DNA of 64,000 bases from Candidatus Tayloriibacteriota bacterium. GTDB taxonomy: Bacteria; Patescibacteriota; Minisyncoccia; Phycocordibacterales; HO2-43-120. Positions 12,414 to 63,937 of this stretch are shown here, one piece after another; the stretch's first letter is position 1, and each line of letters opens with the position of its first letter. Both the position numbers and the translations under genes were made by a program. The notes under the pieces were generated by a model. That model saw only the letters and a program-made list of their open reading frames with translations, was not told the origin of the DNA and searched no databases. The stretch is taken from the NCBI GenBank assembly GCA_039934295.1, contig JBDTMN010000002.1, forward strand, positions 26,725 to 90,724. Direction: 5' to 3'.

Positions 12414-12693
12414 TTGGAAGCGGACAGAATACCTCGCGTCCCTCCTGCGGCGGGGATGTCATGCCTGAGGCAGATCCGTCCTGAGGCGGAAATGGCCGCA
12501 GTTGAATGAGAGCGAGCGCCCGCCCGAACGTAACCCGCCTGTACCGAAACGTTACGTTCGGGCGGGCGTTTCGGTACGGGCGGGGAGCTCGCTCTTCTCC
12601 AACAAAGTTTGCCCCGATGCCTCGCCTAATACCCCGCCGAGGTTTTGCGAGGGGACGGCTTGCCGCGGGGATAGGACGAGGCCAAACTTTATT
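12411..12693 (+). ncRNA. GC-rich structured repeat element, copy 1 (candidate ncRNA family)
   Basis: Starts ttattggaagcggacagaatacctcgcgtccctcctgcg and ends ggccaaactttat. Contains a long central hairpin (gagagcgagcgcccgcccg ... cgggcggggagctcgctcttc). Near-identical to 21496-21711 except for two insertions of about 31 nt. GC far above local background. Confidence 0.5.
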
Positions 12694-16737: not shown

Positions 16738-19014
16738 CTATTCTTCTTTACCGCAAAGCTTGATAAGAGCGAGCTCGAGCGGGAGCTGGGGAAGGTACGA
16801 GAAGCCCACTTTGTCCAGAGCATTGAGAAGCACAATGACCGTTTTGGATGAAATTTTCAAGGTCGGGTTTGCGCTCATTTTTTTGAGAAAATTAAAATCG
16901 TTCTGCCCTGTCTCCTCCTTGATTTCCTCTTCCATCTCCTTGGCGTATTTCAAAAGCAGGATGAGACGGACTTTGAAAAGGACGAGCTTCACATAGGTTT
17001 TCATGTCGATATTTGCCTCAGCGGCATTTCGAACGGCGCTCAAGCCTCGCTCTATATTTTGCTCCTCTATGGCCTCGATACATTCGTTCACAAGCTCCGC
17101 GCGAGGCGCGCCGGTGACCATTTCCACCTCGTCATGAGTGATTTTTTTGTCCTTCGAGAAACTCAACACCTTCTGCAAAATCCCCTGCGTGTCCCGAAAT
17201 GACCCTTCGCCCAAAAGTGCGATGAGCTCGAGCGAAGGCGCCTCGAGCGAATAGCCTTCCTTTTTGGAGATGACGGACACCACGTCCCGTAAAACTTCGA
17301 GCGATGGCTTTTTGAAATTAAAAACCTGACAGCGAGAGATAATGGTCTCGGGCAATTTCTCCATTTCGGTTGTGGCTAGAATAAAAACAACATGCTCCGG
17401 TGGCTCTTCCAAAGTTTTTAAAAGAGCATTATTAGCTTCCTTTGTAAGCATATGGCAGTTAGAAGAACATATTCCATTTGCAATAAAAGTATGCGTATCT
17501 TCGACGGTAAAATCGTATACTCTTGCATTCTCCTCTAATCTTTCAATAGTAAGTATTTTTTCGTATCGAAATTGTAAATACGGATTAAATTCCGGTGCTT
17601 CAGCTACCTTTATAAATTCTTTCACGGTCTCACGCATAAGACCCTGAAATTGATCGAGGTATATACCATGTTGATTCAATATCATATGGCTAAGGCGTAA
17701 TTCTTTTCGTCTCGCAAGAAAAGGGACTTGGAGAGGAATACTATCTTGCTTCTCTGCATGGTCAAATTGATTTTTAAGTACATCTGCTTTTCTTTGAATA
17801 GACAACCCAATAGAATTTTGAAAAATTCTTAGATCATATCCCGTAATGTTCAAGCGATATACTGTCTGATGCTTTATATTTTTTCGCTTGATTTCCATTG
17901 CACCGCTTCCGATGCCGAATTTTTTTAACAGAAGTTGAAGTTTTTTGGAAAAAATAGGAGAGCAAGAGTTAAAACTTAATTTAAAAAGTCTTGTCGATTT
18001 TGTAAATGTTGCATCACCCTCGCAGCAAAAACATGTATCAATATAAGCTCTTATGCTTTCAAGAGGTGCTTGGAAAATCGCATCAGGAATATCGATAGAA
18101 TTACTTTTTTTTCCCGAAGGACAGAGTAATTTGATGAGTTCCTTTTTTAGTTGCGGTGAATACGACCTTAGCAATGTAGTACCCCGTTTCGTCTTCGTAA
18201 TAGTCACTTCCCCACCACAATTCCATGCTTTGCATCCATTTGTAAAAGAGGAAATGAAATATTGGACATCTTTTGAGATCTCAACTTGAATTGTGCAAGA
18301 ATCTTTCGAAATATGACCATCACATTGTATCAGTGCGAGAAAAGCAGCTTGATCTTTTGTCAATAGATTTTTCGCTTTATGAGGCAAACTTGCAGGACTT
18401 ATAAGAAAATCTGAAAAATTTATATCTTCTGCCTTAACAAGAGAAAATGCTCCCTTTCTCATCACCCATAATTTATGCGTTGGAGTACATTTTAATGTTG
18501 ATTGAGGTGTACGAATACTGATTAGTTCTTTGGTTTTGCGTGAAAACCAATTAGAGATTTTTTTAAATACAATCGTTCCCGAATTTAAATCGACTGAGGC
18601 GACTTCATCCCCATTTTTTATTTCAGCGATAGATTTAACTGCTCCGTCTGCAAGCTGGATTAAATGATCAGATGTTAGACATTCGTCCACTATGTATACT
18701 TTGTGCTTTGAATCAAAGGGCAGAGTGCTCACCCCTTCGCGAAGTTCGCGCACGTCGTCAATCCCGCGATTCGACGCGGCATCAATTTCATAGAGGTCGT
18801 TGTCGGAGGTGCCGATTTCTCGCGCAAAAATCCTCGCAATCGAAGTTTTTCCGGTCCCCCGAGAGCCCTCGAAAAGATAGGCATGAGAAATTTTGCCTGC
18901 TTCAATAGAGCCCTTCAACACCTTCACGATATGGTCCTGCCCCAAGACATCTCGGAATGATTGAGGGCGGTATTTGCGATAGAGGGCTAATTTGCCCTTT
19001 TTTTCCTCTCCCAT
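16738..19014 (-). CDS. dnaX: DNA polymerase III subunit gamma/tau, interrupted by an intein
   Basis: Walker A GSRGTGKTS. The box KVYIVDE is followed by about 408 aa starting CLTSDHLIQLADG and ending HTFIANGICSSN, then CHMLTKEANNALLKTLEEPPEHVVF resumes the DnaX sensor region. The exteins sum to about 350 aa, a normal DnaX size. Confidence 0.85.
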   Translation of the reverse strand: MGEEKKGKLALYRKYRPQSFRDVLGQDHIVKVLKGSIEAGKISHAYLFEGSRGTGKTSIARIFAREIGTSDNDLYEIDAASNRGIDDVRELREGVSTLPFDSKHKVYIVDECLTSDHLIQLADGAVKSIAEIKNGDEVASVDLNSGTIVFKKISNWFSRKTKELISIRTPQSTLKCTPTHKLWVMRKGAFSLVKAEDINFSDFLISPASLPHKAKNLLTKDQAAFLALIQCDGHISKDSCTIQVEISKDVQYFISSFTNGCKAWNCGGEVTITKTKRGTTLLRSYSPQLKKELIKLLCPSGKKSNSIDIPDAIFQAPLESIRAYIDTCFCCEGDATFTKSTRLFKLSFNSCSPIFSKKLQLLLKKFGIGSGAMEIKRKNIKHQTVYRLNITGYDLRIFQNSIGLSIQRKADVLKNQFDHAEKQDSIPLQVPFLARRKELRLSHMILNQHGIYLDQFQGLMRETVKEFIKVAEAPEFNPYLQFRYEKILTIERLEENARVYDFTVEDTHTFIANGICSSNCHMLTKEANNALLKTLEEPPEHVVFILATTEMEKLPETIISRCQVFNFKKPSLEVLRDVVSVISKKEGYSLEAPSLELIALLGEGSFRDTQGILQKVLSFSKDKKITHDEVEMVTGAPRAELVNECIEAIEEQNIERGLSAVRNAAEANIDMKTYVKLVLFKVRLILLLKYAKEMEEEIKEETGQNDFNFLKKMSANPTLKISSKTVIVLLNALDKVGFSYLPQLPLELALIKLCGKEE
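17457..18681 (-). mobile_element. Intein in dnaX (about 408 aa) with LAGLIDADG-like homing endonuclease segment
   Basis: Begins with Cys, ends ...SSN with Cys at +1. An internal LALIQCDGHIS block resembles a LAGLIDADG motif. The boundaries come from extein motif continuity. Confidence 0.7.
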
Positions 19015-21495: not shown

Positions 21496-21711
21496 TTTAT
21501 TGGAAGCGGACAGAATACCTCGCGTCCCTCCTGCGACGAGGATGAATGGCCGCAGTGGAATGAGAGCGAGCGCCCGCCCGAACGTAACGTTTCGGTACGG
21601 GCGGGGAGCTCGCTCTTCTTGAACTATGTTTCCCTGATGCCTCGCCTAATACCCTGCCGAGGTACTCCGAGGGGACAGCTTGCTGCGGGGGTAGGACGAG
21701 GCCAAACTTTA
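21496..21711 (+). ncRNA. GC-rich structured repeat element, copy 2
   Basis: Same 5' (ttattggaagcggacag...) and 3' (...taggacgaggccaaactttat) ends and the same central hairpin as copy 1 at 12411. It lies between the ftsQ stop and the DD-carboxypeptidase start. Confidence 0.5.
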
Positions 21712-21746
21712 TTATACTTTAAAAAAGCATTTCCCATACTTACCTT

Positions 21747-33155: not shown

Positions 33156-34151
33156 CTATTTTCTTTTTAAAACTTTATTGACCGCATCTCTAATATCTTT
33201 TTCGCCCATTCCATAATGCTCGAGAAGTTCCTCTGGCTTTCCTGATTGACCGAATTCATCTTTCACTCCTACAAACTCTTGTGGAACGGGATAATTTTTG
33301 GCCAAGAATTCTGCAACAGCGGAGCCCATTCCGCCAGCTATTTGATGCTCCTCTACAGTGACAATTCTTCCCGTCTCTTTAGCAAGACGCAGTATGGCAT
33401 GTTCGTCCAAGGGCTTAATGGTTGAGAGATTAAGAACTTTCACTCCTATCTTCTCTTTCTCCAATTCCTTGGCGACTTTGAGCGCTTTGTGAAGAAGCGC
33501 GCCTGTCGCGATAATACCCACTTCTGCCTTTCCTACAATTGGTTCGAAGAAAACGTGCGCTTTTCCTACCTCAAATGGAGTATCCTCCGTAGTTATAACA
33601 GGAGTTTTATCGCGTGCGAGCCGAAGATAAACCGGCTTCCCCATCTTCGCCACAGCTTGGGTTGCCTTCTTGGCTTCTATTGCATCGCATGGCGAAATTA
33701 CAACCATGTTGGGAATAACCCGAGTGATGGCAATGTCTTCAATCGCCTGATGCGTCCCCCCATCGGGACCCACAGAAATTCCAGCGTGTGAGCCCGCTAT
33801 AATTACCGCTCTGTCGTTGTAACAAATCGTTGTGCGAATCTGCTCCCAGTTTCTGCCCGGAGAAAACATGGCGTAAGAGGAAATGAACGGGATTTTCCCC
33901 ATTGCTGACATCCCCGAAGCCACGCTAGCCAAATTCTGCTCGGCCACCCCCATTTCGATAAACCTCTCTGGAAATTTATTTTTGAAAAGATGCATCTTGG
34001 TGCTCTCTGTTAGGTCAGCGCAAAGGCCCACGACCCTTTTGTCCGCTTCTCCCGCGAGCACCAAACCTTCCCCGAACCCTTTACGGATTTCGGCCAATTC
34101 GACATCATTGTCAAAGAGTTTGGAATTGAGTTTTTGAGATTGGCTTAACAT
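33156..34151 (-). CDS. Transketolase, C-terminal (pyrimidine-binding) subunit
   Basis: FIEMGVAEQNLASVASGMSAMGKIPF pyrimidine-binding domain. 331 aa. Confidence 0.85.
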   Translation of the reverse strand: MLSQSQKLNSKLFDNDVELAEIRKGFGEGLVLAGEADKRVVGLCADLTESTKMHLFKNKFPERFIEMGVAEQNLASVASGMSAMGKIPFISSYAMFSPGRNWEQIRTTICYNDRAVIIAGSHAGISVGPDGGTHQAIEDIAITRVIPNMVVISPCDAIEAKKATQAVAKMGKPVYLRLARDKTPVITTEDTPFEVGKAHVFFEPIVGKAEVGIIATGALLHKALKVAKELEKEKIGVKVLNLSTIKPLDEHAILRLAKETGRIVTVEEHQIAGGMGSAVAEFLAKNYPVPQEFVGVKDEFGQSGKPEELLEHYGMGEKDIRDAVNKVLKRK

Positions 34152-34414
34152 TATAGCAGTCCTTTTATTTTAAGAATCCCGAAGCTAATCGAAGATATAA
34201 CTAAAATTATTCCTTCAATCCTTCTTAGTGAATAGTCTCGCAAGGTCTGCGGGTAGTCGTAACTGGCTTTTTTATTGAAAAGGAGCGTAATACCCAGAAG
34301 AAAGCTCACAGCTATGAATAGATAAATCCAGGTCGGCTGAAGCAACTTGCTGAACCAGAGCGTAATAGCCAAGAGAAGAAAAACTATTTTTAATATTATT
34401 TCTATATACCTCAT
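34151..34414 (-). CDS. Small membrane protein inserted between the transketolase halves
   Basis: 87 aa starting at the internal Met (MRYIEIILKIVFLLLAITLWF...), with 2-3 TM helices. Confidence 0.35.
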   Translation of the reverse strand: MRYIEIILKIVFLLLAITLWFSKLLQPTWIYLFIAVSFLLGITLLFNKKASYDYPQTLRDYSLRRIEGIILVISSISFGILKIKGLL

Positions 34415-34457
34415 CGTTGTTATTTTTAAAGCTAAAACCTGACAGCTAATAGCTTCC

Positions 34458-35324
34458 CTACTCATGTTCACTCCTAATCTTTCCTCCCAGCGTTCGGAGC
34501 GCGTGAAGAGCAATCTTTTTCTCCTCCGGAGTGGTCGGAGGCTTGCCATGCCATTCGAATTTTCCTTCAAATTCTGGAATGCCCTTTGATGGAATCGTGT
34601 GAGCTATAATTACCGATGGCTTCTCGCTCACCGCCCGTGCTTGCCCAACCGCCTCGTCAATTGCCCGAAAGTTATGCCCATCCACCTCCTGCACATGCCA
34701 GTTGAATGACCTCCATTTGTCCACAATGGGCTCTAAAGGCATGATGTCCTCGGTGAAGCCGTCTATCTGAATGTTGTTGCGGTCCACTATCGCCGTCAGG
34801 TTTTGCAATTTTTCTTTCCCGGCAAGAAGTATCGCCTCCCACGTTTGGCCTTCATCATGCTCGCCATCGGACATAAGGCAATAAAATTGCTTTCCGCTTG
34901 AGCGCCCGTTGTCCATGCGGTCTGCAAGCGCCATACCTACAGCTTGTGAGAGACCTGCGCCGAGTGGTCCCGACGAGGTTTCAAGCGAGGGAAGCCATTC
35001 TCGGTGTGGATGCCCCTGAAGACGTGTGCCGAATTTGCGAAGCGTCTTCAATTCCGAGACGGGAAAATATCCGGCGTGGGCCATCGTAGCGTAGAGAACC
35101 GGACAAATGTGGCCGTTTGAAAGCACAAGTCGGTCTCGCTCCGACCAGTCCGGCTTTTTTGGGTCATGCTTCAACGCGTAAAAATAGAGGTATGTAAAAA
35201 TATCGGTCATGCCAAGTGGCCCCGCCGTGTGTCCCGAGCCAGCCTCGATGAGCATCTCAATAATCGAGGTGCGGATTTGGTTGGCTGTGAGTTCAAGTTC
35301 GTGAATTTTTTTGTCATCCAACAT
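34458..35324 (-). CDS. Transketolase, N-terminal (TPP-binding) subunit
   Basis: GSGHTAGPLGMTDIFTYLYF and SNGHICPVLYA are transketolase N-terminal motifs. Confidence 0.85.
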   Translation of the reverse strand: MLDDKKIHELELTANQIRTSIIEMLIEAGSGHTAGPLGMTDIFTYLYFYALKHDPKKPDWSERDRLVLSNGHICPVLYATMAHAGYFPVSELKTLRKFGTRLQGHPHREWLPSLETSSGPLGAGLSQAVGMALADRMDNGRSSGKQFYCLMSDGEHDEGQTWEAILLAGKEKLQNLTAIVDRNNIQIDGFTEDIMPLEPIVDKWRSFNWHVQEVDGHNFRAIDEAVGQARAVSEKPSVIIAHTIPSKGIPEFEGKFEWHGKPPTTPEEKKIALHALRTLGGKIRSEHE

Positions 35325-51809: not shown

Positions 51810-51881
51810 GGCCCTATCGTCTATCGGCTAGGACGGAGCCTTCTCAAGGCTCAAAGCAGGGTTCGACTCCCTGTAGGGTCA
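51810..51881 (+). tRNA. tRNA-Glu (anticodon CUC)
   Basis: GGCCCTATCGTCTATCGGCTAGGACGGAGCCTTCTCAAGGCTCAAAGCAGGGTTCGACTCCCTGTAGGGTCA. Acceptor is 7 bp including one G-U. D-loop has GG. Anticodon loop TTCTCAA. T-loop TTCGACT. Discriminator A. Manual fold. Confidence 0.7.
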
Positions 51882-52424
51882 CAGATTTTTGCGTAGCATA
51901 AAAAGCTGTGACACTAAGCAGAGCTGGGGGCTCTGCGTCAGGGAGTCGAAGCCCGATTGAGCATTTTTTTTGAGTTTGCTTCAAACGAGGAAAAAATCCA
52001 ATCGGGGTACTGAACATGTAATGTTCGACTCCCTGTAGGGTCACAAAAATAATGAGGACAATGCGGAGCATTGGCTGAGTATAATTTTGTAGATTCTACA
52101 GGGAGTCGAAAGACGGAGCGGGCACCCGTTCACCAGAACGGGTCGCGAGTCGGGGTCGCGGCTTTTGTGAGACGGCGGTCGAACAAAAAGCTGTGACCGA
52201 CTCCCTGTAGGGTCACAAATTTTTTTAAAGCGAGCAAACTGCTTTGCTCGTGAAAAATTTGTGAAGGCACAGGCCTAGTTCGCGAGTACGCGAACAGCCG
52301 AGCCGGGGTCGGCAAGTACTTACATTTTTTGTGATTTTAAGAAACAAAAAATTTAGTAACTTGTGACCACATAAACTTTGAGTGCGTAGCACACAATTAT
52401 GACCGACTCCCTGTAGGGTCACAG
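51861..52424 (+). repeat. Array of four direct copies (plus two inverted partial copies) of the tRNA-Glu 3' end (T-loop plus acceptor 3' strand)
   Basis: Direct copies (g/a)(t/c)cgactccctgtagggtcaca at 51861-51883 (in the tRNA), 52023-52045, 52197-52219 and 52401-52423. Inverted partial copies agggagtcgaa at 51941-51951 and 52101-52111. Spacings 162, 174 and 204 nt. Confidence 0.7.
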
Positions 52425-52432
52425 ATTTTCGC

Positions 52433-55400
52433 TCACAATAAGTTCTGTAACATCTCGATTATCCATCGCAAAATTTTATACAACGTGTTCCAAAACTCTT
52501 GCAAAATGCCCATGAAAGATGCGCTGAGTGCCTTCAAGACCCCTGCAGTAACATTGACGGGAGAAACCGAGTCGGTATTTGTTTTGATACTTACGCTTAC
52601 GCCCGGAGCTTCCTGGCCAGGATGATTGAAGCGGTAGCCGGCGGGAATATTGTCAGCGGTTTGAGCAGCGTTTGTTGGAGAATATGGCGGCCAGGAGAGT
52701 GAGCCGAACCATGCGGGTTTGGAGGAAAGGTAGAGAGAATTTGGCAGAGTCTGTCCTCCCGTCAAGGCTTCATTTGCAGGAATGCCTTTGCCGAAAATAT
52801 AGTTCTGTTTCCTGATGAACGTGAGTCCGACATCCATATCAAGTTCCTGGAATCCTTCTGATCTCGGCCAAAGACCTATGGCAGTTCCCTGTGCCGGAAG
52901 TGGGTCTAGGTATCCTCCGGTAAGAGAAACAGCATTGCCGGAAAAAGCAGTCGTATGCATGCCTATTCGAGCGCCATTGCTCCATTGCGTTGTAATCGCC
53001 GGACAATTTCCTCCAAAAGCCTGGCAGTATCCTAGCAGTCGCGAAGTTCCGGCGCTCAAGGTTACGACACCGCTTGAACCATCAGATGCGCGACTAGTGA
53101 GGGTACCTTTGATGCCGAGCCCGGCGACAGGGCTCCAGTCTAGCCAATATATGCCTTGGCTCGGTAGGGCAAATCCCGTGGAGGCTCCATTGCCGATGTT
53201 CGGCTGGCCGAGACTATATGCACCTACGACATTACCGATGGCACTAAAATTCCTGGAAAAACGCTTGAAGGCAAGAAAGCCCGATGTCCAGTTCCTAAAG
53301 AACATTTCTTCCGAATCGCTTCCAAAATAGCCGTCTGATTTGAATTCGCCTCCCTGCAAATAATTTCCTTCATATAGATTGTAGCTATTATGAGAACCAT
53401 GGTTGACGTTCACACTGCCGTCAGGCATATAATTGTAGGCGAAAACATTACCTACGGAACTAAAGTTTATTTCAAGAAGCGGGAATGATTTGTAAACGAT
53501 GTTATCTTCAAACAGACATCCGGTATTTCCTCCGCTCAAAAATCCAGAGCCATTTGTACCGCCATGGTTGAGCTCGTCGAGGAAGGAATGTCTGACCTCG
53601 CACCCCAAGCTATCATTAAAACTTATCGAGTAATTACTCATGTGTCTGACTTTGACATTCTTGACCCATGAAGCGTATGTGCCTCCAGCGCTTATTCCAA
53701 ATTGAGTGGTGGCATTTGACCCGTCAATGGTCAGGTCTTCAATACCGACATACCTTGAGGTTGCATAATTCGGCGCAGTGATGCTTGGCTGTCTCCCTGA
53801 AAAATCAACGATAAGAGGCGGGGAGAAGCTAAGGGCGCTACCTGACTTCCCAGTCAGAACCACAATCTGGGATTGGATATTTTCGTAGCCCGAGACTGAT
53901 ATAGTCGGTAGAGATGTTTTATTTTTTCCGCTTATTTTGACTATATTTCCAACTGTATATGGTGATGAGTCAGAAACGCTGACTTGAGTGCTTCCCTTCG
54001 AAGCGCCTGAAAGGACCGGCACGGCAGAAACATTGTAAAATTCAGATCCGCGTATATTCACACAGACGCTTGGAACATAACAATCAAGAATAGTACTCGC
54101 TCCTGCTCCGCGAAGCGTTATATTACTCTTAAAAGATGCGACGATCTGGGTCAAGATCTTATAGGTTCCCGCGGGCAAATAAACAATATCATTTGCCACC
54201 GCGGCGGTGATGGCACTATTTATGGCTGGAGCGGCATCGGTAGCTCCAGTTTTATCCGCATTGTAGGGCGCTTGGGTGACATCAATGAGATGAGTGCGAT
54301 TTGTCGGAATCCCTCCAGTAACGCCTGCGGTAACTCCAGGAATCCAGTTGGCCAAACGGTTTGAAGGTATCAAAGCAGATGATCCGCCTGGAGTGGTTGC
54401 TGCAACACCTGCCGACGGAGGCGAGACATTTCCGCCGTTATCTGTAGCCGTCACTGTGTATGTATACGTCGTACCTGGGGAGACGGTGAAGTCCTGGTAG
54501 TACTGCTGTTCCGTATCATGATACGGAGCTTGGTACGGTATGTGCGCAATAGTCCCTATCTGGGTTCCATTCCTATATATAGTATACGAAGTAATGGTTC
54601 CGGTTGTTGGCGTTGAGCGCAACCAGATAAGGCTGATTTGGTCTGGCGCCACGCCGGCAGCCGATACATAGGTCGGCGCGGGCACGCCACTTACTGAAGA
54701 TAAGTTGAATGTTGCTGTAACTGTCGTATTTGAAGCTACAGTGACTACACATGTCCCCGTTCCACTACATCCTCCTCCAGACCAACCGGTGAAGGTAGAG
54801 CCCGAAGTAGCTACAGCGGTAAGAGTTGAAACTGTGCCAGAGGTGAGGCCTGAAGCCGAACAGGTACTGCCACAACTCACAGATCCTCCTGTGGAAGTCA
54901 CCGTACCTCCTCCCGTGCCTGCCTTGGTGATCGTAAGAGTAAATGTTGTTGGCGTCGCTACTCCACTAGTAGTAACCGATAAAGCGGCTGACGGAACGGA
55001 GTTATTGGGAGCTCCCGCGTTGTCATAGGATGATATAGTGTATGAATATGTGGTGCTTGCCACAAGACCAGAGTTGGCGAAAGAGGTACCGGATGTTACC
55101 GTGCCCACTTGAGCCCCTCCTCTCCATACTTTGTATCCCGCCACGTTTCCTCCCCCAGTATCAGTCGAAGCTGTCCATGAAATAGTTGCTCCTGTTTGGG
55201 TTACGTTTGATGACGAAAGATTTGTAGGTACGGACGGAGCTTGTGTGTCTGAAGGAGAGCCGGAACCACTACCATCTGTAGCGGTAACACTTCTAAATCC
55301 GTAGTCAGTATCCGCGCCTCCATATGCCCTGAGCCAGCCTATGCCGGGTGCACCACTGGCAAAGGTGCTGTCAGTAGTCGTAAGTATGGAAACATTGTTG

Positions 55401-57745
55401 ACGTAAAGGGTGATGGTATTGCCGATCATCGTGCCTTTGATGGTACTGTTGTCAGTAAGAAATGGGGCTCCCTGTGCGGCACTCAAATTGGCCAATACCG
55501 TGAAGTTACCTAACGCACCATTCCAGCGAACGATAGAATAATATTGAGTACCAGTTGGACTGAGACCGTAGGTCAACTCATAGCCAGTATTGGAATGGGC
55601 TGAGATACTGCTACGTAGACGAATCTCGAGTTCCTCAACAGCACTTCCTGTAGGATTCACCGTATGCACAACAGCAGTGACTGTTTGATCTGGACCCCAA
55701 GTGCCGGAGAGTATAGCGGTAGAATCATCATAGCCACCTGAGGGCGGCTGTGTGCCATATACCAATCCATTTGCCATACGCATATCAGTCCAGTCTAGAC
55801 CTGTCGCCTTGCCGTTGATCCAGTTGCCGGATTCTGATAGAGGATTTTCTGCGCCACCGGAGAAAGTTGTGACATAGGTACGGGGATTGCCTGCTGAAAC
55901 CGCCTGCGTGGTTGCGCTCGCGGAAGATGATTGGGCCGATGGATTCCCTGCCGCGTCTTGCGCTAAGACTGTATATGAATATGAGGTGTTTGCGGTAAGA
56001 CCAGTACTCGAATACGAATTGGTGCTTGGTGTAGCTACTTGTGTGCCGTTTCTAAATACTTTGTATCCTGTAACCCCTACATTGTCTGTTGAAGCAGTCC
56101 AGGATAGGTTTATCTGGCTCGAAGATACCGCGGAAGCCGAAAGGTTCGTAGGGGTCGAAGGTGCGGTGGTGTCTGGGACAACAGAGATAGTCTCAGAGCA
56201 GGAGGCAGTGGTTCCTCCGTTTGATCCGGTACAACTCCAGAGACGCGCAGTCGAGGTGTCAGTAACATCTGCGAATGTGCCCGATGTGCACTGGTTGAGA
56301 GTGGTTGAACACAGACCGTTGACCGCTGTCCCCCCTCCTCCCCCCACTGCATTCAATAGCTCGGTGATTTCTTGAGCAGAGAGTGCTCGGCTGTAGATGC
56401 GGACTTCGTCAATAGAGCCGTTAAAGACCCAGTTCGGACCGAAGATGTTGTTTATAATGACAGATTTACTATTTGCATCAGTGGTCCCACTAGCGGCGGC
56501 TTCAGATTTTTTGACACCGTCCACCCAGATGCTGACTTTTGAACCGTCATACATACCGACAAGATGGTGCCAATTTGAATCAGTTATGGTTGGAGCCGCT
56601 CCGGATGAGTACTTCACCCCTCCGCTTGTGATTTGAAATTGTGGATTGAACGCATAGTTGTCAGAATACAAGCTCCATTCTATAGTTGCATAAGGACTTC
56701 CTTTTGTGACCAGATATTTCAATTGACCCACTTCATTATTACTCACTTGCTTAATCCATACTGAAACAGTCATGGCGTTTAACCCATCGAGTGCGTTAAT
56801 GTCTTTCGCATCGACATAATCATCCACCCCGTCAAACTTCAATCCCTGCCCGATCTTTCCCGTGGTAAATGTCGGTCCGTTTATGAGTGTGCCGGTATTT
56901 GATCCCACGGAGTCGTTAGCGTTACCGTCGAAGGCCCAGTAGCTTATGAGTTTGCCAACGGAGGTCGGTGGGGGCGGAGTAGGAGTGACTCCTCCACCTG
57001 TGGAGTTGTATATGTCGGTGATTTCTTGAGCAGAGAGTGCTCGGCTGTAGATGCGGACTTCGTCAATAGAGCCGTTAAAGACCCAGTTCGGACCGAAGAT
57101 GTTGTTTATAATGACAGATTTACTATTTGCATCAGTGGTCCCACTAGCGGCGGCTTCAGATTTTTTGACACCGTCCACCCAGATGCTGACTTTTGAACCG
57201 TCATACATACCGACAAGATGGTGCCAATTTGAATCAGTTATGGTTGGAGCCGCTCCGGATGAGTACTTCACCCCTCCGCTTGTGATTTGAAATTGTGGAT
57301 TGAACGCATAGTTGTCAGAATACAAGCTCCATTCTATAGTTGCATAAGGACTTCCTTTTGTGACCAGATATTTCAATTGACCCACTTCATTATTACTCAC
57401 TTGCTTAATCCATACTGAAACAGTCATGGCGTTTAACCCATCGAGTGCGTTAATGTCTTTCGCATCGACATAATCATCCACCCCGTCAAACTTCAATCCC
57501 TGCCCGATCTTTCCCGTGGTAAATGTCGGTCCGTTTATGAGTGTGCCGGTATTTGATCCCACGGAGTCGTTAGCGTTACCGTCGAAGGCCCAGTAGCTTA
57601 TGAGGTTACTTGAGGGAATAGCTTGAGCGCGCTGGGAAGAAGTGTAGACGTTATTAATTTGCTTGTTGAGTGTGGAAAAACTTAAAACTGCTACTAATAA
57701 AAGAAACGCTGTGGCAATAATGCCAAGAATGTGTTTTTTATACAT
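52433..57745 (-). CDS. Giant secreted/anchored surface protein (1770 aa): two identical LamG/ConA-like lectin domains, fibronectin-III-like domains, Thr/Ser/Gly-rich linkers, C-terminal right-handed beta-helix-like region
   Basis: N-terminal signal anchor. Duplicated about 196-aa segment LISYWAFDGNANDSVGSNTGTLINGPTFTTGKIGQGLKFDGVDDYVDAKD... (LamG-like). FN3-like PSTPTNLSASAVSSSQINLSWTASTDNVGVTGYKVFRNG. A later region with NxxG / parallel beta-helix-like repeats. Confidence 0.7.
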   Translation of the reverse strand: MYKKHILGIIATAFLLLVAVLSFSTLNKQINNVYTSSQRAQAIPSSNLISYWAFDGNANDSVGSNTGTLINGPTFTTGKIGQGLKFDGVDDYVDAKDINALDGLNAMTVSVWIKQVSNNEVGQLKYLVTKGSPYATIEWSLYSDNYAFNPQFQITSGGVKYSSGAAPTITDSNWHHLVGMYDGSKVSIWVDGVKKSEAAASGTTDANSKSVIINNIFGPNWVFNGSIDEVRIYSRALSAQEITDIYNSTGGGVTPTPPPPTSVGKLISYWAFDGNANDSVGSNTGTLINGPTFTTGKIGQGLKFDGVDDYVDAKDINALDGLNAMTVSVWIKQVSNNEVGQLKYLVTKGSPYATIEWSLYSDNYAFNPQFQITSGGVKYSSGAAPTITDSNWHHLVGMYDGSKVSIWVDGVKKSEAAASGTTDANSKSVIINNIFGPNWVFNGSIDEVRIYSRALSAQEITELLNAVGGGGGTAVNGLCSTTLNQCTSGTFADVTDTSTARLWSCTGSNGGTTASCSETISVVPDTTAPSTPTNLSASAVSSSQINLSWTASTDNVGVTGYKVFRNGTQVATPSTNSYSSTGLTANTSYSYTVLAQDAAGNPSAQSSSASATTQAVSAGNPRTYVTTFSGGAENPLSESGNWINGKATGLDWTDMRMANGLVYGTQPPSGGYDDSTAILSGTWGPDQTVTAVVHTVNPTGSAVEELEIRLRSSISAHSNTGYELTYGLSPTGTQYYSIVRWNGALGNFTVLANLSAAQGAPFLTDNSTIKGTMIGNTITLYVNNVSILTTTDSTFASGAPGIGWLRAYGGADTDYGFRSVTATDGSGSGSPSDTQAPSVPTNLSSSNVTQTGATISWTASTDTGGGNVAGYKVWRGGAQVGTVTSGTSFANSGLVASTTYSYTISSYDNAGAPNNSVPSAALSVTTSGVATPTTFTLTITKAGTGGGTVTSTGGSVSCGSTCSASGLTSGTVSTLTAVATSGSTFTGWSGGGCSGTGTCVVTVASNTTVTATFNLSSVSGVPAPTYVSAAGVAPDQISLIWLRSTPTTGTITSYTIYRNGTQIGTIAHIPYQAPYHDTEQQYYQDFTVSPGTTYTYTVTATDNGGNVSPPSAGVAATTPGGSSALIPSNRLANWIPGVTAGVTGGIPTNRTHLIDVTQAPYNADKTGATDAAPAINSAITAAVANDIVYLPAGTYKILTQIVASFKSNITLRGAGASTILDCYVPSVCVNIRGSEFYNVSAVPVLSGASKGSTQVSVSDSSPYTVGNIVKISGKNKTSLPTISVSGYENIQSQIVVLTGKSGSALSFSPPLIVDFSGRQPSITAPNYATSRYVGIEDLTIDGSNATTQFGISAGGTYASWVKNVKVRHMSNYSISFNDSLGCEVRHSFLDELNHGGTNGSGFLSGGNTGCLFEDNIVYKSFPLLEINFSSVGNVFAYNYMPDGSVNVNHGSHNSYNLYEGNYLQGGEFKSDGYFGSDSEEMFFRNWTSGFLAFKRFSRNFSAIGNVVGAYSLGQPNIGNGASTGFALPSQGIYWLDWSPVAGLGIKGTLTSRASDGSSGVVTLSAGTSRLLGYCQAFGGNCPAITTQWSNGARIGMHTTAFSGNAVSLTGGYLDPLPAQGTAIGLWPRSEGFQELDMDVGLTFIRKQNYIFGKGIPANEALTGGQTLPNSLYLSSKPAWFGSLSWPPYSPTNAAQTADNIPAGYRFNHPGQEAPGVSVSIKTNTDSVSPVNVTAGVLKALSASFMGILQEFWNTLYKILRWIIEMLQNLL
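56361..57604. repeat. Apparently perfect 590-bp tandem duplication (56361-56950 and 57015-57604) with a 64-nt linker, inside the giant gene
   Basis: The ORF track shows two identical 79-aa + strand ORFs 654 nt apart. My read of the nucleotides shows identity from tcggtgatttcttgagcagag to cccagtagcttatgag in both blocks. Confidence 0.8.
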
Positions 57746-57916: not shown

Positions 57917-60793
57917 CTACCGAATAATCCCTACATATTTAAGCCAACCGAGGAAAGCACCCGCAACGCCTGCCCAATAGGAAGTCGACTGGGTTGTCGG
58001 TGCCGCGGTTATGGTAATCTCACCAACTTTGTATCGGCTGTTCCCTGCATCAGACACCCCAGATCCGGGAGTGAAGACGAGGCGTTCAGAACCGACGTAC
58101 ATACCAACGAGAACGTCGTATGATCCAACTGGGATATCATCGATGGATTTGGATGATGGAGTAGACATGGTTCCTGCTGACCACTGATCGGTCGGAGGAT
58201 TTGGGAAGAAGCCGAAGCTAACTACTTTGCTCCGATCAACTTTGTTGTTCAGGAATACGAATACCGACCAGCTTTGCTTTCCTAGAGAAAGTCTGTACGG
58301 TCCTCCAGACCAGTTCAGAGTGTAATTGAGGGTTTGGCCGACTTGGATGCTCGAAGGAGCATTCCAAGGAAGAACGGTGGGTTGAGTTTGAACCTGTTGA
58401 ATAGCTGGAACTGAAACTGCCAAATCTCTAGAGACTGAAGCGCCTGCACTGTTTCTGCACGTGAGCGTATAGTTGGCATTTGAAGTCAACACTCCTGTAT
58501 TGATAGCCTCGCTAGCTCTGTATGAAGCGTTGCTGAAGTTTGGACCATTCAGAGTACAGCCCGTTGCATTTGTCGCCGACCATACCAATGTCGTAGATCG
58601 GACATCGTTGGTGATAGGTTGTGAAGTTCTAAAATCAGTTATCGAAGGAGCAGGTGCATTAGTAGTGTTTGGAGCCGCCGTAACCGTAATCTCCCCGACC
58701 TTGTATCGACTGCTACCTGCATCAGATACTCCGGACCCTGGAGCAAAGACCAGACGTTCCGAGCCGACGTACATACCAACAAGGACGTCATATGAACCGG
58801 GAGGAATGTCAGAAGTAGACTTGGATGATGGAGTAGACATGGTTCCTGCAGGCCACTGCGCCGTTGGTGGATTTGGGAAGAAGCCAAAGTTAACTTCTTT
58901 GCTCCGATCAGCTTTGTTGCGCAAGAATACGAATACCGACCAGTTTTGCTTTGCTAGAGAAAGTCTGTACGGTCCTCCAGACCAATTCAAAGTATAGTTC
59001 AGAGTCTGACCAGCTTGGATAGTAGAAGGCGCATTCCAAGGGAGGACGGTGGGGGTTCCGGCTGCTGGGTTGGTAGTAACGGGAGGAAGTGTCGTAGTTG
59101 GAGGAGGATTGGTTGTTGCGGGGGGATTGGCGGGAACAGGTGTTACCGGAGGGTTTGAAGGGGTTACTGGTGTAACCGTTGTTGGCACATACCTAAAGAC
59201 TACCTTTGATACTTGGCCAGCAGTTATATTCACTGGCACCGAACAAAAACCAAGAGAGCAGGTAACATTGGTTTTTGAATATGATGATTGACTGCCGATG
59301 AGACACTCTGTCCCCTGATTGTTGAGGCCTCCGCCTGCAAATGTGCACGAAGCCGAGTATTCATCATATCCAAAAAGATCGGTGGCGTATGCGGTGTGTT
59401 GACCTACTGACGGATTAAATTGCCCTGCTCCTGTGCCGGAGCCTAGAGAAACTGTATACGGGTTTGCTGCTCCTACGGAAGAAATACTGTCCACGGTCGC
59501 CTGTGTTCCGGAAATAGGATTGAGATCGGCATCTACTCGCTTGATGATGAGGTTGGGAGAAAATGTGGACACGGTCCCAGCCCCAGAACCGGTACTTATA
59601 AAACTTGCCCTACTTGCACCTACAAATGGCGCAGTTGAAGGAGAAACTCCGCTCTGCTGACCATTGTAGACTATCACGTCAGTCGAACCGCTGAACCTAA
59701 CCCCGTCGGAAGAAATCTTGACTTGGTATTTTGTGCCGTTCGTAGAACCAACCATGTCGTTTGGTAGATCTATAGAAAGAAACCATTGGGCCGACGTAGA
59801 TTGGTTGTCGATGGTAAGAGTCTTTGTGTAGTTTTTACCGGTAATATTGACATAATATCTAGCGATGGAAGGGTCTATGATAATAGCGTCTCGCGGCCAC
59901 ACATTATACGGTGCAGTTGGGGAGAAATTTTGTATGTAGACCTTAGATAGAGTACACGAAGATGTATTGGTCTCTGACGGACACGTACGCACAGCATACT
60001 GATAATCCCTCACTACCTTGTGGGATGTCTGATACAGTCTCATCGATGAGAGGTTCGGACTAACTATCTTCAAGGTAGATGGCGGGCTCCAAGTCTTTTC
60101 CCCATCTATGGAATAACTCACTTGAATAGACGAGCCGACGACGGCATTGGCGGAAACAGTAAATGGAGTGGCGGGAACCGAAGTGAAATCCACTTGTCCA
60201 TTGCCTATAGATCCACCTATAGTTCCAGAAAATATTCTGGTAGTGCTTAGATTGCTCAATGTCACCGTATTGGTCGGATAGACAACGCGGACTGAAGAAG
60301 TTTTCACTGTAGAAAGAGCTCCCAGTAAAATATACATCTGTTCACCGCGATAGGCGGTTTTGGTCGATGCTGCAAAAGCTTCAAGCACGATGAACTCTGG
60401 AGCTTTCGGTGTGACCTGTGTAGCTGTTTGTCCGCCTTGTACACCACCAGTGGCTGTAGAGGTGACTTTGTCCAAATATCGCTCTTCAACCCAACCCGTG
60501 CCTGCATAATCAAAGTCAACCGCCCATGACCAAGTACCGAGACTATTGGACAGTGCTGGAACATTCGGTCGTATTGTACCGACAAAGTCTTTTTTGGCAG
60601 TGTTTCCATTTGTTAGTTCAACAGAAACGTTGGAATTGATCTTAACGCGATCACCTGTCTTAAACTTGGTTGAAATCTGAGAAGCTGTCGGTGTAACCCC
60701 TTGAGCATGAATCGGGTTAGCTACTATAAAGGTGAAGGCCAGTACAATCGCCGACAAAGCTAAGAAACGTGCATATGTTTTCATAAAAATCAA
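57917..60793 (-). CDS. Giant secreted surface protein (958 aa) with internal 130-aa repeats and a Pro/Thr-rich linker
   Basis: Signal peptide MIFMKTYARFLALSAIVLAFTFIVANPIHA, linker PVTPSNPPVTPVPANPPATTNPPPTTTLPPVTTNP, two diverged copies of TVLPWNAPS(T/S)IQ(A/V)GQTLNYTLNWSGGPYRLSL... and a hydrophobic C-terminus. Confidence 0.65.
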   Translation of the reverse strand: MIFMKTYARFLALSAIVLAFTFIVANPIHAQGVTPTASQISTKFKTGDRVKINSNVSVELTNGNTAKKDFVGTIRPNVPALSNSLGTWSWAVDFDYAGTGWVEERYLDKVTSTATGGVQGGQTATQVTPKAPEFIVLEAFAASTKTAYRGEQMYILLGALSTVKTSSVRVVYPTNTVTLSNLSTTRIFSGTIGGSIGNGQVDFTSVPATPFTVSANAVVGSSIQVSYSIDGEKTWSPPSTLKIVSPNLSSMRLYQTSHKVVRDYQYAVRTCPSETNTSSCTLSKVYIQNFSPTAPYNVWPRDAIIIDPSIARYYVNITGKNYTKTLTIDNQSTSAQWFLSIDLPNDMVGSTNGTKYQVKISSDGVRFSGSTDVIVYNGQQSGVSPSTAPFVGASRASFISTGSGAGTVSTFSPNLIIKRVDADLNPISGTQATVDSISSVGAANPYTVSLGSGTGAGQFNPSVGQHTAYATDLFGYDEYSASCTFAGGGLNNQGTECLIGSQSSYSKTNVTCSLGFCSVPVNITAGQVSKVVFRYVPTTVTPVTPSNPPVTPVPANPPATTNPPPTTTLPPVTTNPAAGTPTVLPWNAPSTIQAGQTLNYTLNWSGGPYRLSLAKQNWSVFVFLRNKADRSKEVNFGFFPNPPTAQWPAGTMSTPSSKSTSDIPPGSYDVLVGMYVGSERLVFAPGSGVSDAGSSRYKVGEITVTAAPNTTNAPAPSITDFRTSQPITNDVRSTTLVWSATNATGCTLNGPNFSNASYRASEAINTGVLTSNANYTLTCRNSAGASVSRDLAVSVPAIQQVQTQPTVLPWNAPSSIQVGQTLNYTLNWSGGPYRLSLGKQSWSVFVFLNNKVDRSKVVSFGFFPNPPTDQWSAGTMSTPSSKSIDDIPVGSYDVLVGMYVGSERLVFTPGSGVSDAGNSRYKVGEITITAAPTTQSTSYWAGVAGAFLGWLKYVGIIR

Positions 60794-61597: not shown

Positions 61598-62023
61598 TTA
61601 AAACTGCGCTATTTCATTCGAAGAAACGATACTCCAAATGCCTCCGGTTTCTTTTGCCAGCGTCTCCACATTGGAATAGGTATTTTGGAATCGAGAACGG
61701 GTCCGAATGAGCAAATCCACTCCCTGGGGCATTATTGAAAAAATCGTGCATTTGTGCTCGGTCTCCGTTTCCGAAAGTGAAATCTCATCTCCTCCAGATG
61801 ACGGCGAATATGCGCTATTTGTTGATAATTTTAAAAGCGCGATGTCTCTGCAACTTTTCGCAAATGACGAGCTCATCTCCTTAAATTCAGAATCTAAAAC
61901 ATTGAACCTCGCCGAGAATCCCCCGAGATTCAGCGTGAAAACAATGGTCGTCATAATAAGAGAGATGAGAATGACCGAAATCAGCGCGATGAACCCTTTT
62001 TCTTTTTTAGATGAACACGTCAT
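61598..62023 (-). CDS. Prepilin-like / pseudopilin protein
   Basis: N-terminus KKEKG|FIALISVILISLIM has a prepilin-type cleavage site G-F and a hydrophobic helix, but no Glu5. 4-nt overlap with the upstream gene. Confidence 0.55.
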   Translation of the reverse strand: MTCSSKKEKGFIALISVILISLIMTTIVFTLNLGGFSARFNVLDSEFKEMSSSFAKSCRDIALLKLSTNSAYSPSSGGDEISLSETETEHKCTIFSIMPQGVDLLIRTRSRFQNTYSNVETLAKETGGIWSIVSSNEIAQF

Positions 62024-62538
62024 TGAATCAATTTGATTAACTCATATACTTCTCCTTTAATCGTAAGGAAAACTTTCACGAATTCTTTTCCGTTCGCGCT
62101 CTCGTGTTCAAATGATAGAGCGTCAATGGAAACAAAATCGCTATTCAATTTATTTTCGGGTGATGCTCCTCTTCTTAGCATGATACTTTTTCCCGCTGGG
62201 TCAAAACTCAACGTTAAAGAAATTCCGGACCCGCGCAGAGAGAGCGTTGACCCAGAACTACCCAATGCGGGCACTGATACAGACGTAACTCCGGCAAACA
62301 AGGAATCAATCTTTTTGAGCAAGAAATTTGTCTCTTCAATGAGCAGGACTTTTTCGCTCATGGCATTTTCGTTTGCAATAACCTGATATGCAGTCTGAAG
62401 AAAACTTCCCATGATAAGAGCAAGAAGGGCAATGTAAATGAGAGACTCGATGAGGGTGAAGCCGCGGGAATATGTAACATGTAACTTGTAACATGAAACA
62501 TGGAAAAATCTTTTTTGCATTTTTGATTTCATGGTCAA
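62020..62538 (-). CDS. Type IV pilin-like protein with long leader
   Basis: SRG|FTLIESLIYIALLALIMG is the canonical prepilin N-methylation/cleavage motif with Glu5. The leader is 20-26 aa depending on which Met is used. Confidence 0.7.
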   Translation of the reverse strand: MTMKSKMQKRFFHVSCYKLHVTYSRGFTLIESLIYIALLALIMGSFLQTAYQVIANENAMSEKVLLIEETNFLLKKIDSLFAGVTSVSVPALGSSGSTLSLRGSGISLTLSFDPAGKSIMLRRGASPENKLNSDFVSIDALSFEHESANGKEFVKVFLTIKGEVYELIKLIQ

Positions 62539-62575: not shown

Positions 62576-63937
62576 CTAGTTTCCTTTTACAAATATTATT
62601 TTGTTTGGAGTTGCAACATACATTGTATTCCCCTCGCAGTCGAGGCTTATGCCGTCTCCATTCAAGTTGATGTCTCCAATTTTTACAATGTTGCTCGGGT
62701 CTTTCACATTCCATATTTGAAATTCTTCCGCCCCAACTAGTGTTGCAAGAAATGCCTTGTCGCTTCGAACAAAAATGTCATTCACACTCTTCCCTATTTT
62801 TTCCGACCCAACCGAGCTCTCAGATTTTGTATCAATAATGTGCAATTCATGATTAGACGCGATCGTTCCTCCATAAGTTCTTCCGAGATAAACCGTATCC
62901 CCCAATGGATAAAGACTCTTCCCGCTCTGGGTTAGAAATTGAGTCAATGTAATACTTCCGATTTCCTTGATATCACTGGGATCATTCACATCCAAAATTC
63001 TCATTTGTTTACTGCTGGCGGTAGCTAGATACGCCTTCGCTCCGACAACATAGATGTCGTTTACTACATTCCCTATCTCAAAGCTTCCGAGCAATGAGGG
63101 ACTAAGAGGGTCAGAGACATCTATAACGGAGAATTCAGGGTAGCTCGGTGAATTATTTGTTCCGAGAAACACTTTTTTATTCGAATAGAAAATGCTACTC
63201 GAAGTTCTATTGTCATTTATTCCTACAATGGAAGGCAACTTCAATTCTTTTTTAAGCAATGGATTAGAAGAATCAGACACATCAATAATCTGAAGTTGCG
63301 CGTTTATGCTTCCATTTGCAACATACGCGTAATCTCCTGCTACATGCAGAGCGTTGAGACCTGGGCCCGTGGTTATACTCGATACTATTTGAATATCTGA
63401 ATGATTAGAAATATCCACAATGTGAAAATCGGGTTGAAGCGGAGTGCTTGAATTCGTCGTCACATATATTTTATTATTGAGAACATCAATTTGGGTGATG
63501 TCAGTGAGACTTGAAATAGACGCAATTTCGCTTGGATTACTCCAATCATCGGTTAGAAACATGTCGCAGGTATCCGTTCCGAGAGCGTTTTCTGAATTCG
63601 TCGCAATTCTTGATAGTACCACTTGGTGTTTTCCACCATCCCAACTGACAGCGCTTTCTACAGATTTCGCAAAATTCGTTATCGGTTCAACAGTAATTGT
63701 TTTTTCAAAAATCCCGTCGGCAACCAAAGTGTTTTGCAGAGAATAGAAATCTTCGAGTAGAAAGATTTCGAGTCCTGATTTTGCTTTTGCGAGAGCGATT
63801 AGCGACAGTTCCGCCTGCAAAATCATGCTCCTGCTCCCGAAAGAAACCAAAATCACGGCAGTTATAACCAAAATACCCACTGAAAAAGCAACAAGTATTT
63901 CAAGCGTGCTCATGCCTTGTGAAGATTGTTCGTTCAT
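62576..63937 (-). CDS. Pilin-like N-terminus fused to an LVIVD-repeat beta-propeller (putative minor pilin / adhesin)
   Basis: QG|MSTLEILVAFSVGILVI is a prepilin motif with Glu5. At least four LVIVD-type repeats follow (YAYVANGSINAQLQIIDVSDSSNP, KVFLGTNNSPSYPEFSVIDVSDPLSP, KAYLATASSKQMRILDVNDPSDI, KAFLATLVGAEEFQIWNVKDPSNI). Confidence 0.65.
   Translation of the reverse strand: MNEQSSQGMSTLEILVAFSVGILVITAVILVSFGSRSMILQAELSLIALAKAKSGLEIFLLEDFYSLQNTLVADGIFEKTITVEPITNFAKSVESAVSWDGGKHQVVLSRIATNSENALGTDTCDMFLTDDWSNPSEIASISSLTDITQIDVLNNKIYVTTNSSTPLQPDFHIVDISNHSDIQIVSSITTGPGLNALHVAGDYAYVANGSINAQLQIIDVSDSSNPLLKKELKLPSIVGINDNRTSSSIFYSNKKVFLGTNNSPSYPEFSVIDVSDPLSPSLLGSFEIGNVVNDIYVVGAKAYLATASSKQMRILDVNDPSDIKEIGSITLTQFLTQSGKSLYPLGDTVYLGRTYGGTIASNHELHIIDTKSESSVGSEKIGKSVNDIFVRSDKAFLATLVGAEEFQIWNVKDPSNIVKIGDINLNGDGISLDCEGNTMYVATPNKIIFVKGN

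Follow-up and report, generated by a model that had tools for sequence, protein, structure and literature searches.

We analysed a 64-kb window, the whole stretch of DNA considered here, from a 99,441-bp contig of a metagenome-assembled genome (MAG) of Candidatus Taylorbacteria, and we focused on one gene in which two neighbouring LamG domains share an identical block of nucleotides. This host gene lies on the minus strand at 52433..57745 (window coordinates throughout) and encodes a protein of 1770 amino acids (aa) according to the open reading frame (ORF) list, the translation and Pfam, the same length as in a preliminary description of the sequence. The host protein is 100% identical to NCBI MEO8637464.1, 'MAG: LamG-like jellyroll fold domain-containing protein [Candidatus Taylorbacteria bacterium]', and its protein cluster has this one member, on this one contig. 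Its module order begins with an N-terminal hydrophobic signal or anchor, read directly from the protein sequence, followed by a LamG module, a linker, a second LamG module, a Cys-rich stretch and an FN3 domain. After this first FN3 come a domain of about 220 aa, a second FN3, an InlB-B-repeat-like module, a third FN3, a pectate-lyase-like beta-helix and a C-terminal tail. Pfam recognized Laminin_G_3 twice, three FN3 and one InlB-B-repeat-like module on the host protein.

The base-by-base comparison at an offset of 654 showed that 56361-56950 equals 57015-57604 at 590/590 positions, so that the perfect identity claimed earlier for these two blocks holds, with no overlooked mismatches. A repeat search of the window returned the same pair of LamG blocks at a spacing of 654, and Tandem Repeats Finder did not report the pair, as the longest period it covered was 500 vs 654 here. 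A perfect match of 590 nt in 64 kb cannot be due to chance, and the observation of the repeat pair is confirmed. The two blocks, hereafter the identity tract, are direct repeats in frame, with a period of 654 nt or 218 codons, and they cover codons 48-243 and 266-461, each plus 2 nt of the next codon. Of about 130 synonymous and some 458 non-synonymous sites compared, none differs between the copies. Copy 1, in LamG domain 1, lies at 57015..57604 (minus strand) and runs from the first beta-strand (LISYW) to the middle of the C-terminal helix (…SAQEIT); copy 2, in LamG domain 2, lies at 56361..56950 (minus strand). Between them, a unique 64-nt spacer at 56951..57014 (minus strand) encodes (D)IYNSTGGGVTPTPPPPTSVGK, which comprises the end of the last helix of LamG-1 and a Gly/Pro/Thr linker. 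The blocks had been called tandem; they are direct, in-frame repeats, but they are not arranged head to tail. The corresponding segment behind copy 2, at 56336..56360 (minus strand), encodes (E)LLNAVGGG, a diverged end of the last LamG-2 helix with a Gly run, homologous to the spacer start DIYNSTGGG. Just outside both tract ends, identity falls to the background of about 25-40%, except on the low-coordinate side at 56335-56360, where 15/26 positions match over about 26 nt, mostly in Gly codons. No third or partial copy of the tract was found in the window by blastn.

Each block encodes a LamG/ConA-like domain. The Pfam family PF13385 (Laminin_G_3) matched two stretches of the host protein with E=4.7e-44 and 150.6 bits against a cut-off of 27.6, and the best stretch, residues 87-242, covered profile positions 1-150 of 151. 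The AlphaFold2 model of residues 40-270, built from an alignment of 34 homologous domains, reached a mean confidence (pLDDT) of 88.8 and a predicted template modelling score (pTM) of 0.85, with 15 strands and a C-terminal helix arranged as a two-sheet jelly roll. When this model was submitted to Foldseek against the PDB, it matched the lectin-like (N-terminal) subdomain of the tetanus/botulinum Hc region (E=2.5e-12, TM 0.73), domain 4 of the GH43 arabinanase AbnA (TM 0.78) and the lectin domain of trans-sialidase (TM about 0.7). A sequence search of the PDB with the LamG module likewise returned AbnA domain 4 (phmmer E=4.4e-5), together with an S-layer-associated protein. Modules of this kind serve as carbohydrate-binding modules (CBMs), a function that we infer for the two blocks from their relatives. 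The linker encoded by the spacer has a pLDDT of 55-68 and is flexible as judged from the model.

The limits of the tract were then compared with the limits of the fold. The first strand of the model, aa 48-52 (LISYW), coincides with the first residues of the tract, whereas the last helix spans aa 239-247 and the tract stops within it, at aa 243. The earlier statement that each block holds a full LamG domain is therefore accurate as to the fold but not as to its extent, as the tract lacks the last 4-5 residues. The alignments to the PDB relatives 5hon_A and 4qvs_A run through 'DIYN', beyond the tract end, and the conservation in 702 homologous domains from 119 proteins persists there as well, with L/I at +2, Tyr at +3 (85%) and Asn at +4 (45%). 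Both this family conservation and the modelled structure extend past the tract, which supports homology between the two modules for the codons at its edge. These codons are diverged: the helix continuation reads DIYNSTGGG in copy 1 vs ELLNAVGGG in copy 2, with 4/9 aa and 16/27 nt identical, and the nine homologous codons give, for a small sample, proportions of synonymous and non-synonymous differences of about 0.53 (pS) and 0.36 (pN). Synonymous sites are thus identical inside the tract and homologous but diverged over nine codons at its edge, as in a conversion tract. The 3' limit of the tract directly follows the most conserved block of the family (G178 95%, D181 97%, Y186 90%, E194 80%); an end at such a block is expected for conversion between diverged paralogues and is consistent with it, although it is no test of that model.

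The spacer itself has no copy elsewhere in the window; its only other blastn match is 20 nt at 90% identity in the neighbouring gene (E=0.009). Compared with the flank before copy 1, the spacer end shows background similarity and is unrelated, and compared with the flank after copy 2, the spacer shows a weak, Gly-codon-rich resemblance at its start (15/26 nt) and otherwise background. Each module has therefore kept its own old helix end and linker, which places the identical block inside an older two-module architecture. Such an embedded identical block is characteristic of gene conversion, or alternatively of ongoing concerted evolution whose edges diverge.

To place this identity in context, we surveyed adjacent LamG pairs in 119 homologues, using phmmer domain coordinates and pairwise alignment. 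The homologues carry 4-11 LamG modules each. Their 492 adjacent pairs have a median identity of 37%; two pairs reach at least 80%, and none reaches 90%. The maximum among all 1716 intra-protein LamG pairs is 95.9%, and the pair studied here is an outlier, the extreme of a continuum. A second control is provided by the upstream neighbour at 57917..60793 (minus strand), a secreted protein of 958 aa with an internally duplicated C-terminal domain of 127 aa. This old duplicate has a spacing of 672 nt, 81% nucleotide identity, and synonymous and non-synonymous divergences of about 0.96 (dS) and 0.07 (dN); the high dS indicates that duplicates in this locus normally diverge. The neighbour received no Pfam assignment; its C-terminus is a short hydrophobic tail with basic residues behind it.

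One of the homologues, P0002 (L010; ENA ERZ26871208 contig_41681_np1212), has 2985 aa and eight LamG domains interleaved with Ig-like domains. Three of its LamG copies (A, B and C) are 81-89% identical in nucleotides and 91-96% in protein, with a longest perfect run of 137 nt. Their relationships change along the alignment: in columns 75-220, A=C is supported by 17 informative sites vs 3 for B=C, and in columns 600-738, B=C is supported by 46 vs 11 for A=C. Given this segment-wise discordance, LamG repeats in other members of the family may also exchange segments and become mosaics. The contig name suggests a nanopore assembly, and P0002 may be a better, probably long-read-supported, case for studying LamG repeat exchange. 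Closer to the host gene, no relative of the module above about 50% identity was found among 5.8 billion protein clusters. The next relative of the host protein is at most 44% identical over at most 31%. The 30-mers and 24-mers of the tract were absent from the genome, metagenome and viral contig sets, and no second strain was found.

From the identity of the tract and the divergence of its edges, we infer a recent intragenic gene conversion between two older neighbouring LamG modules, an ordinary process and an explanation to which we give somewhat better than even confidence. The preliminary description had offered very recent duplication or ongoing gene conversion; conversion is favoured here, and a fresh duplication is disfavoured because the spacer is not repeated at the outer flanks. 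The proposed starting state would be a gene with two neighbouring paralogous LamG modules and a Gly/Pro/Thr linker between them. In a recent event of non-reciprocal homologous recombination, maybe one of a series, one module would have overwritten about 590 nt of the other, along a conversion tract that begins at the first beta-strand and reaches the highly conserved block shortly before the end of the last helix. The modules would thereby have lost every base difference within the tract and kept their diverged helix ends and linkers beyond it. Recombination functions are encoded in the window by the DprA and RmuC genes.

Several points weigh against conversion. The identity and the copy number rest on one assembly, with no second strain, and RecA was not seen in the 64-kb window. 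RecA-type conversion requires prior identity at the tract ends, and it would be hard to start if the old domains had diverged as far as the flanks (about 57% nucleotide identity). The explanation must accordingly assume either continuous homogenisation since the duplication or anchoring in conserved terminal motifs. The flank comparison covers 9 codons only, the similarity at the edge could partly reflect family-level conservation rather than descent from one duplication, and the P0002 mosaic is partly due to different borders of the duplication units.

Among the other explanations, an assembly effect deserves the most attention, and we regard it as unlikely. The genome would then hold two or more very similar modules, with a few true differences flattened, a copy number of three or more, or a number that varies in the population. 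The source is a MAG with one cluster member on one contig, the 590-nt repeat exceeds typical short reads, and searches of the protein collection and of the genome, metagenome and viral contig sets turned up no other, independent assembly of this population. Graph (de Bruijn) assemblers settle a repeat-spacer-repeat loop by coverage and merge bubbles of low divergence, which also counts for such an effect. Against it, the unique spacer leaves the reading frame of 1770 aa intact (654 = 3 x 218) and supplies a proper end for the helix as well as a linker; a unique in-frame spacer of this kind implies that the repeat-spacer and spacer-repeat junctions exist in real molecules. Moreover, a collapse needs near-identity anyway, so that a homogenised block inside diverged flanks would survive it, and near-identical LamG repeats also occur in the probable long-read assembly of P0002. 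The earlier suggestion of an assembly collapse or expansion artefact is thus narrowed: expansion from a single copy is unlikely given the spacer, while the assembly may have flattened a few true differences or may understate a copy number above two.

A very recent duplication of a single LamG module by illegitimate recombination or slippage, with the 64-nt spacer made or captured at the junction, would account for the zero differences in 590 nt and for a tract that begins exactly at the first residue of the fold, and domain duplication is frequent in this family, as the module counts per homologue indicate. We nevertheless consider it improbable, since 64 of the 654 nt are unrepeated at either outer flank, the spacer opens with a canonical LamG helix end (DIYN; consensus L/I-Y-N) followed by a typical linker, and copy 2 has its own helix end, ELLN. 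A one-step tandem duplication with a period of 654 was rejected, as it predicts 654 identical bases and the spacer at an outer flank; duplication of the bare 590-nt tract was rejected as well, as it would shift the frame (590 = 196 x 3 + 2). The spacer was also rejected as filler, because it encodes a canonical domain end and linker and its sole other match is the 20-nt one. Still more remote, in our judgement, is a recent overwriting of both positions from an external third copy, for example a LamG gene carried by a phage or a paralogue at another place in the genome. The view covers 64 of the contig's 99 kb and no other part of the genome, and CPR (candidate phyla radiation) phages have been reported to encode ConA/LamG proteins (PMC11310336). 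Nevertheless, the window holds no third copy, the protein clusters hold no module relative above about 50% identity, the tract 24-mer is absent from viral contigs, and a single conversion is a more parsimonious account than two independent ones that share their end points. In composition, the tract matches the host gene (GC 0.459 vs 0.486; GC at third codon positions, GC3, 0.49 vs 0.45), so that, together with the lack of a third or partial copy in the window, nothing suggests import, and a foreign origin was rejected.

Two further candidates were tried and rejected. CPR genomes are rich in diversity-generating retroelements, but the repeats are not the target of one, as no reverse transcriptase domain was found in about 50 ORFs scanned across the window and the repeats are perfect over 590 nt, whereas a template and its variable repeat differ at adenines. 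A mobile element was dismissed because these ORFs contained no reverse transcriptase, integrase or transposase. A promoter and terminator scan of the locus gave counts at shuffle expectation, and the antisense promoter-like sites inside the tract are merely duplicated along with it.

Beyond the LamG modules, the host protein contains several other domains. The best Pfam fn3 stretch marks an FN3 domain at aa 530-606 (55928..56158, minus strand), and an fn3_2 stretch marks another at aa 836-911 (55013..55240, minus strand). The segment of about 220 aa between these first two FN3 (55231-55900, minus strand; aa about 615-838) had no Pfam match even at E=5. Residual repeats of 34 nt at a spacing of 930-933 tie the FN3 at aa 836-911 to the first one, and from these the FN3 and the 220-aa segment together seem to be the unit of an old internal duplication. 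A divergent InlB B-repeat-like domain follows at aa 949-1015 (54701..54901, minus strand; PF18998, E=1.4e-4, slightly under the gathering score), and then a pectate-lyase-like right-handed beta-helix at aa about 1161-1368 (53642..54265, minus strand; PF12708, E=2.5e-10, 41 bits vs a cut-off of 27). A sequence search of the PDB with the C-terminal 822 aa returned no match; the PF12708 match, in the C-terminal third of the protein, was obtained by running Pfam on a shorter segment. The beta-helix has relatives at 40% identity in a Saccharibacteria MAG and in an Opitutaceae MAG; in the latter it exists as a stand-alone ORF of 609 aa, which makes the host protein a mosaic. No orthologue of the host gene was found in the databases searched, where the relatives of its C-terminal module are only 40% identical and come from unrelated phyla.

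The hydrophobic N-terminus and the FN3 modules indicate that the host protein is plausibly extracellular. The preliminary description called it a surface adhesin; the surface part is plausible on these grounds, and adhesin is one reading among others in view of the beta-helix and the CBM relatives. The LamG copies may be the carbohydrate-binding modules of a surface glycan-active protein. With a beta-helix at the C-terminal end and modules that are akin to CBMs, a surface role in glycan binding or glycan degradation is at least as likely as a purely adhesive one.

The genes upstream of the host gene on the same (minus) strand are the 958-aa secreted protein, a prepilin-type protein (62020-62538) and an LVIVD beta-propeller protein (62576-63937), which together indicate an envelope or surface gene cluster. 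The rest of the window is an ordinary chromosome segment of a small genome, with genes for GAPDH, GatB, Obg, RNase III, NusB, SerRS, a split transketolase, DprA, RmuC and an intein-containing DnaX. This last gene, for DNA polymerase III tau/gamma (DnaX-like; 16738-19014, minus strand), is split by an intein with a LAGLIDADG homing-endonuclease domain. The transketolase is encoded by two ORFs within 33156-35324 (minus strand): the N-terminal part occupies 34458-35324, the C-terminal part 33156-34151, and a gap of 300 nt lies between them. The window also holds two copies, and no more, of a GC-rich element of 85 nt, at 12609-12693 and 21629-21713; they are 89% identical and have the same orientation, and each folds into a long imperfect hairpin and lies directly 3' of a minus-strand gene, with no Rfam match.

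On the other side of the host gene, a tRNA-Glu(CTC) at 51810-51882 is followed by a non-coding gap of 560 nt up to the stop codon of the 1770-aa gene (51810-52432 for tRNA and gap together). The 19-22 nt that end the tRNA (CGACTCCCTGTAGGGTCACA) are present in four exact direct copies, with starts at 51865 (within the tRNA itself), 52027, 52199 and 52405 and spacings of 162, 172 and 206, and two inverted copies of the T-arm part lie at 51939 and 52099; none is expected by chance. Judged from the sequence, these repeats look like stacked attachment-site scars left by elements that had integrated at the tRNA 3' end or like a tRNA-derived, terminator-like repeat family. No integrase was found near them.

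The repeat pair was also compared with known systems. The closest concept is that of Periscope Proteins, in which a high DNA identity of tandem domains, the proposed substrate of intragenic recombination, drives variation in repeat number and breaks the rule that adjacent domains are less than 50% identical (PMC8201768); surface proteins with identical repeats include SasG/Aap, Rib/alpha C, Sgo_0707, Esp and CdrA (PMC8201768, PMC9704523). Under the screening criterion for that set (more than 50 aa at 80% identity or more; PMC8201768), the host protein qualifies with two adjacent copies of 196 aa at 100% identity. As in Periscope Proteins, a large secreted protein contains a folded domain (more than 50 aa) more than once at high identity, and the 50% rule is broken, which the homologues otherwise follow (median 37%, 492 pairs). 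In contrast, the host protein has two copies only and belongs to an uncultivated CPR bacterium, not to a Gram-positive pathogen. Its repeats are globular lectin jelly rolls directly after the N-terminal hydrophobic segment, joined by a flexible Gly/Pro/Thr linker of 20 aa. The rod-like stalk built by Periscope repeats, which holds an N-terminal ligand-binding head away from the wall anchor, appears to be a different arrangement. Length variation between strains, the defining observation, is described for the Periscope set, and the host protein should not be filed there.

Gene conversion and concerted evolution in bacteria are exemplified by tufA/tufB, the rRNA operons and repeated surface-antigen modules, and Santoyo and Romero reportedly treated the conversion of paralogous sequences in bacteria in 2005. 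The pair described here resembles such cases in its sharply bounded, fully identical block, synonymous sites included, within older diverged flanks; it differs in that the partners are two domains of one ORF, 64 nt apart, and that a single genome is compared. The tandem CBMs of glycan-active enzymes such as GH43 AbnA (domain 4, PDB 5hon/5ho0) share the fold at detectable similarity (E=4.4e-5; TM 0.70-0.78), and the host protein has a pectate-lyase-like beta-helix toward its C-terminal end. A larger number of binding modules gives higher avidity. The module identity is far higher in the host protein than in characterised multi-CBM enzymes. LamG/ConA-like surface proteins have been proposed as host-attachment factors of CPR bacteria and DPANN archaea (PMC11310336, PMC9563170). 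The host protein resembles these as a signal-bearing multi-LamG protein amid envelope genes in a Ca. Taylorbacteria genome, whereas the reports describe the presence and enrichment of the domain and no identical intragenic copies, and adhesion is hypothetical there too.

The 590-nt direct repeat is, as proposed earlier, a suitable substrate for copy-number change, with tracts 64 nt apart and an in-frame unit of 654 nt. If the two tracts recombined again, one module of 218 codons would be lost or gained in frame, and the product would have 1552 or 1988 aa with one or three lectin modules. In an episymbiotic CPR bacterium, a secreted or surface protein that binds glycans would thus change its number of lectin modules, and with it its valency or its reach. 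The literature on measured deletion rates between direct repeats offered nothing directly usable. It is a doubtful further step that the identity is kept by recurrent conversion because a variable lectin number is selected, in a Periscope-like attachment or glycan-capture protein with coexisting one-, two- and three-module alleles; if this copy-number-variable reading were true, neither LamG modules nor the Patescibacteria would have provided such a case before.

The phenomenon belongs to a known kind, and it reveals no new mechanism and opens no long-standing question. Its main practical value is a warning against interpreting the length of this locus in a MAG before long-read confirmation. 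If real, the pair would be a clean natural example of domain-level homogenisation within one gene, and it would show that the rule of less than 50% identity between adjacent domains can be broken outside cultured pathogens. For an organism presumed to live attached to other cells, it would also provide a ready in-frame switch of the number of lectin modules that a surface protein carries.

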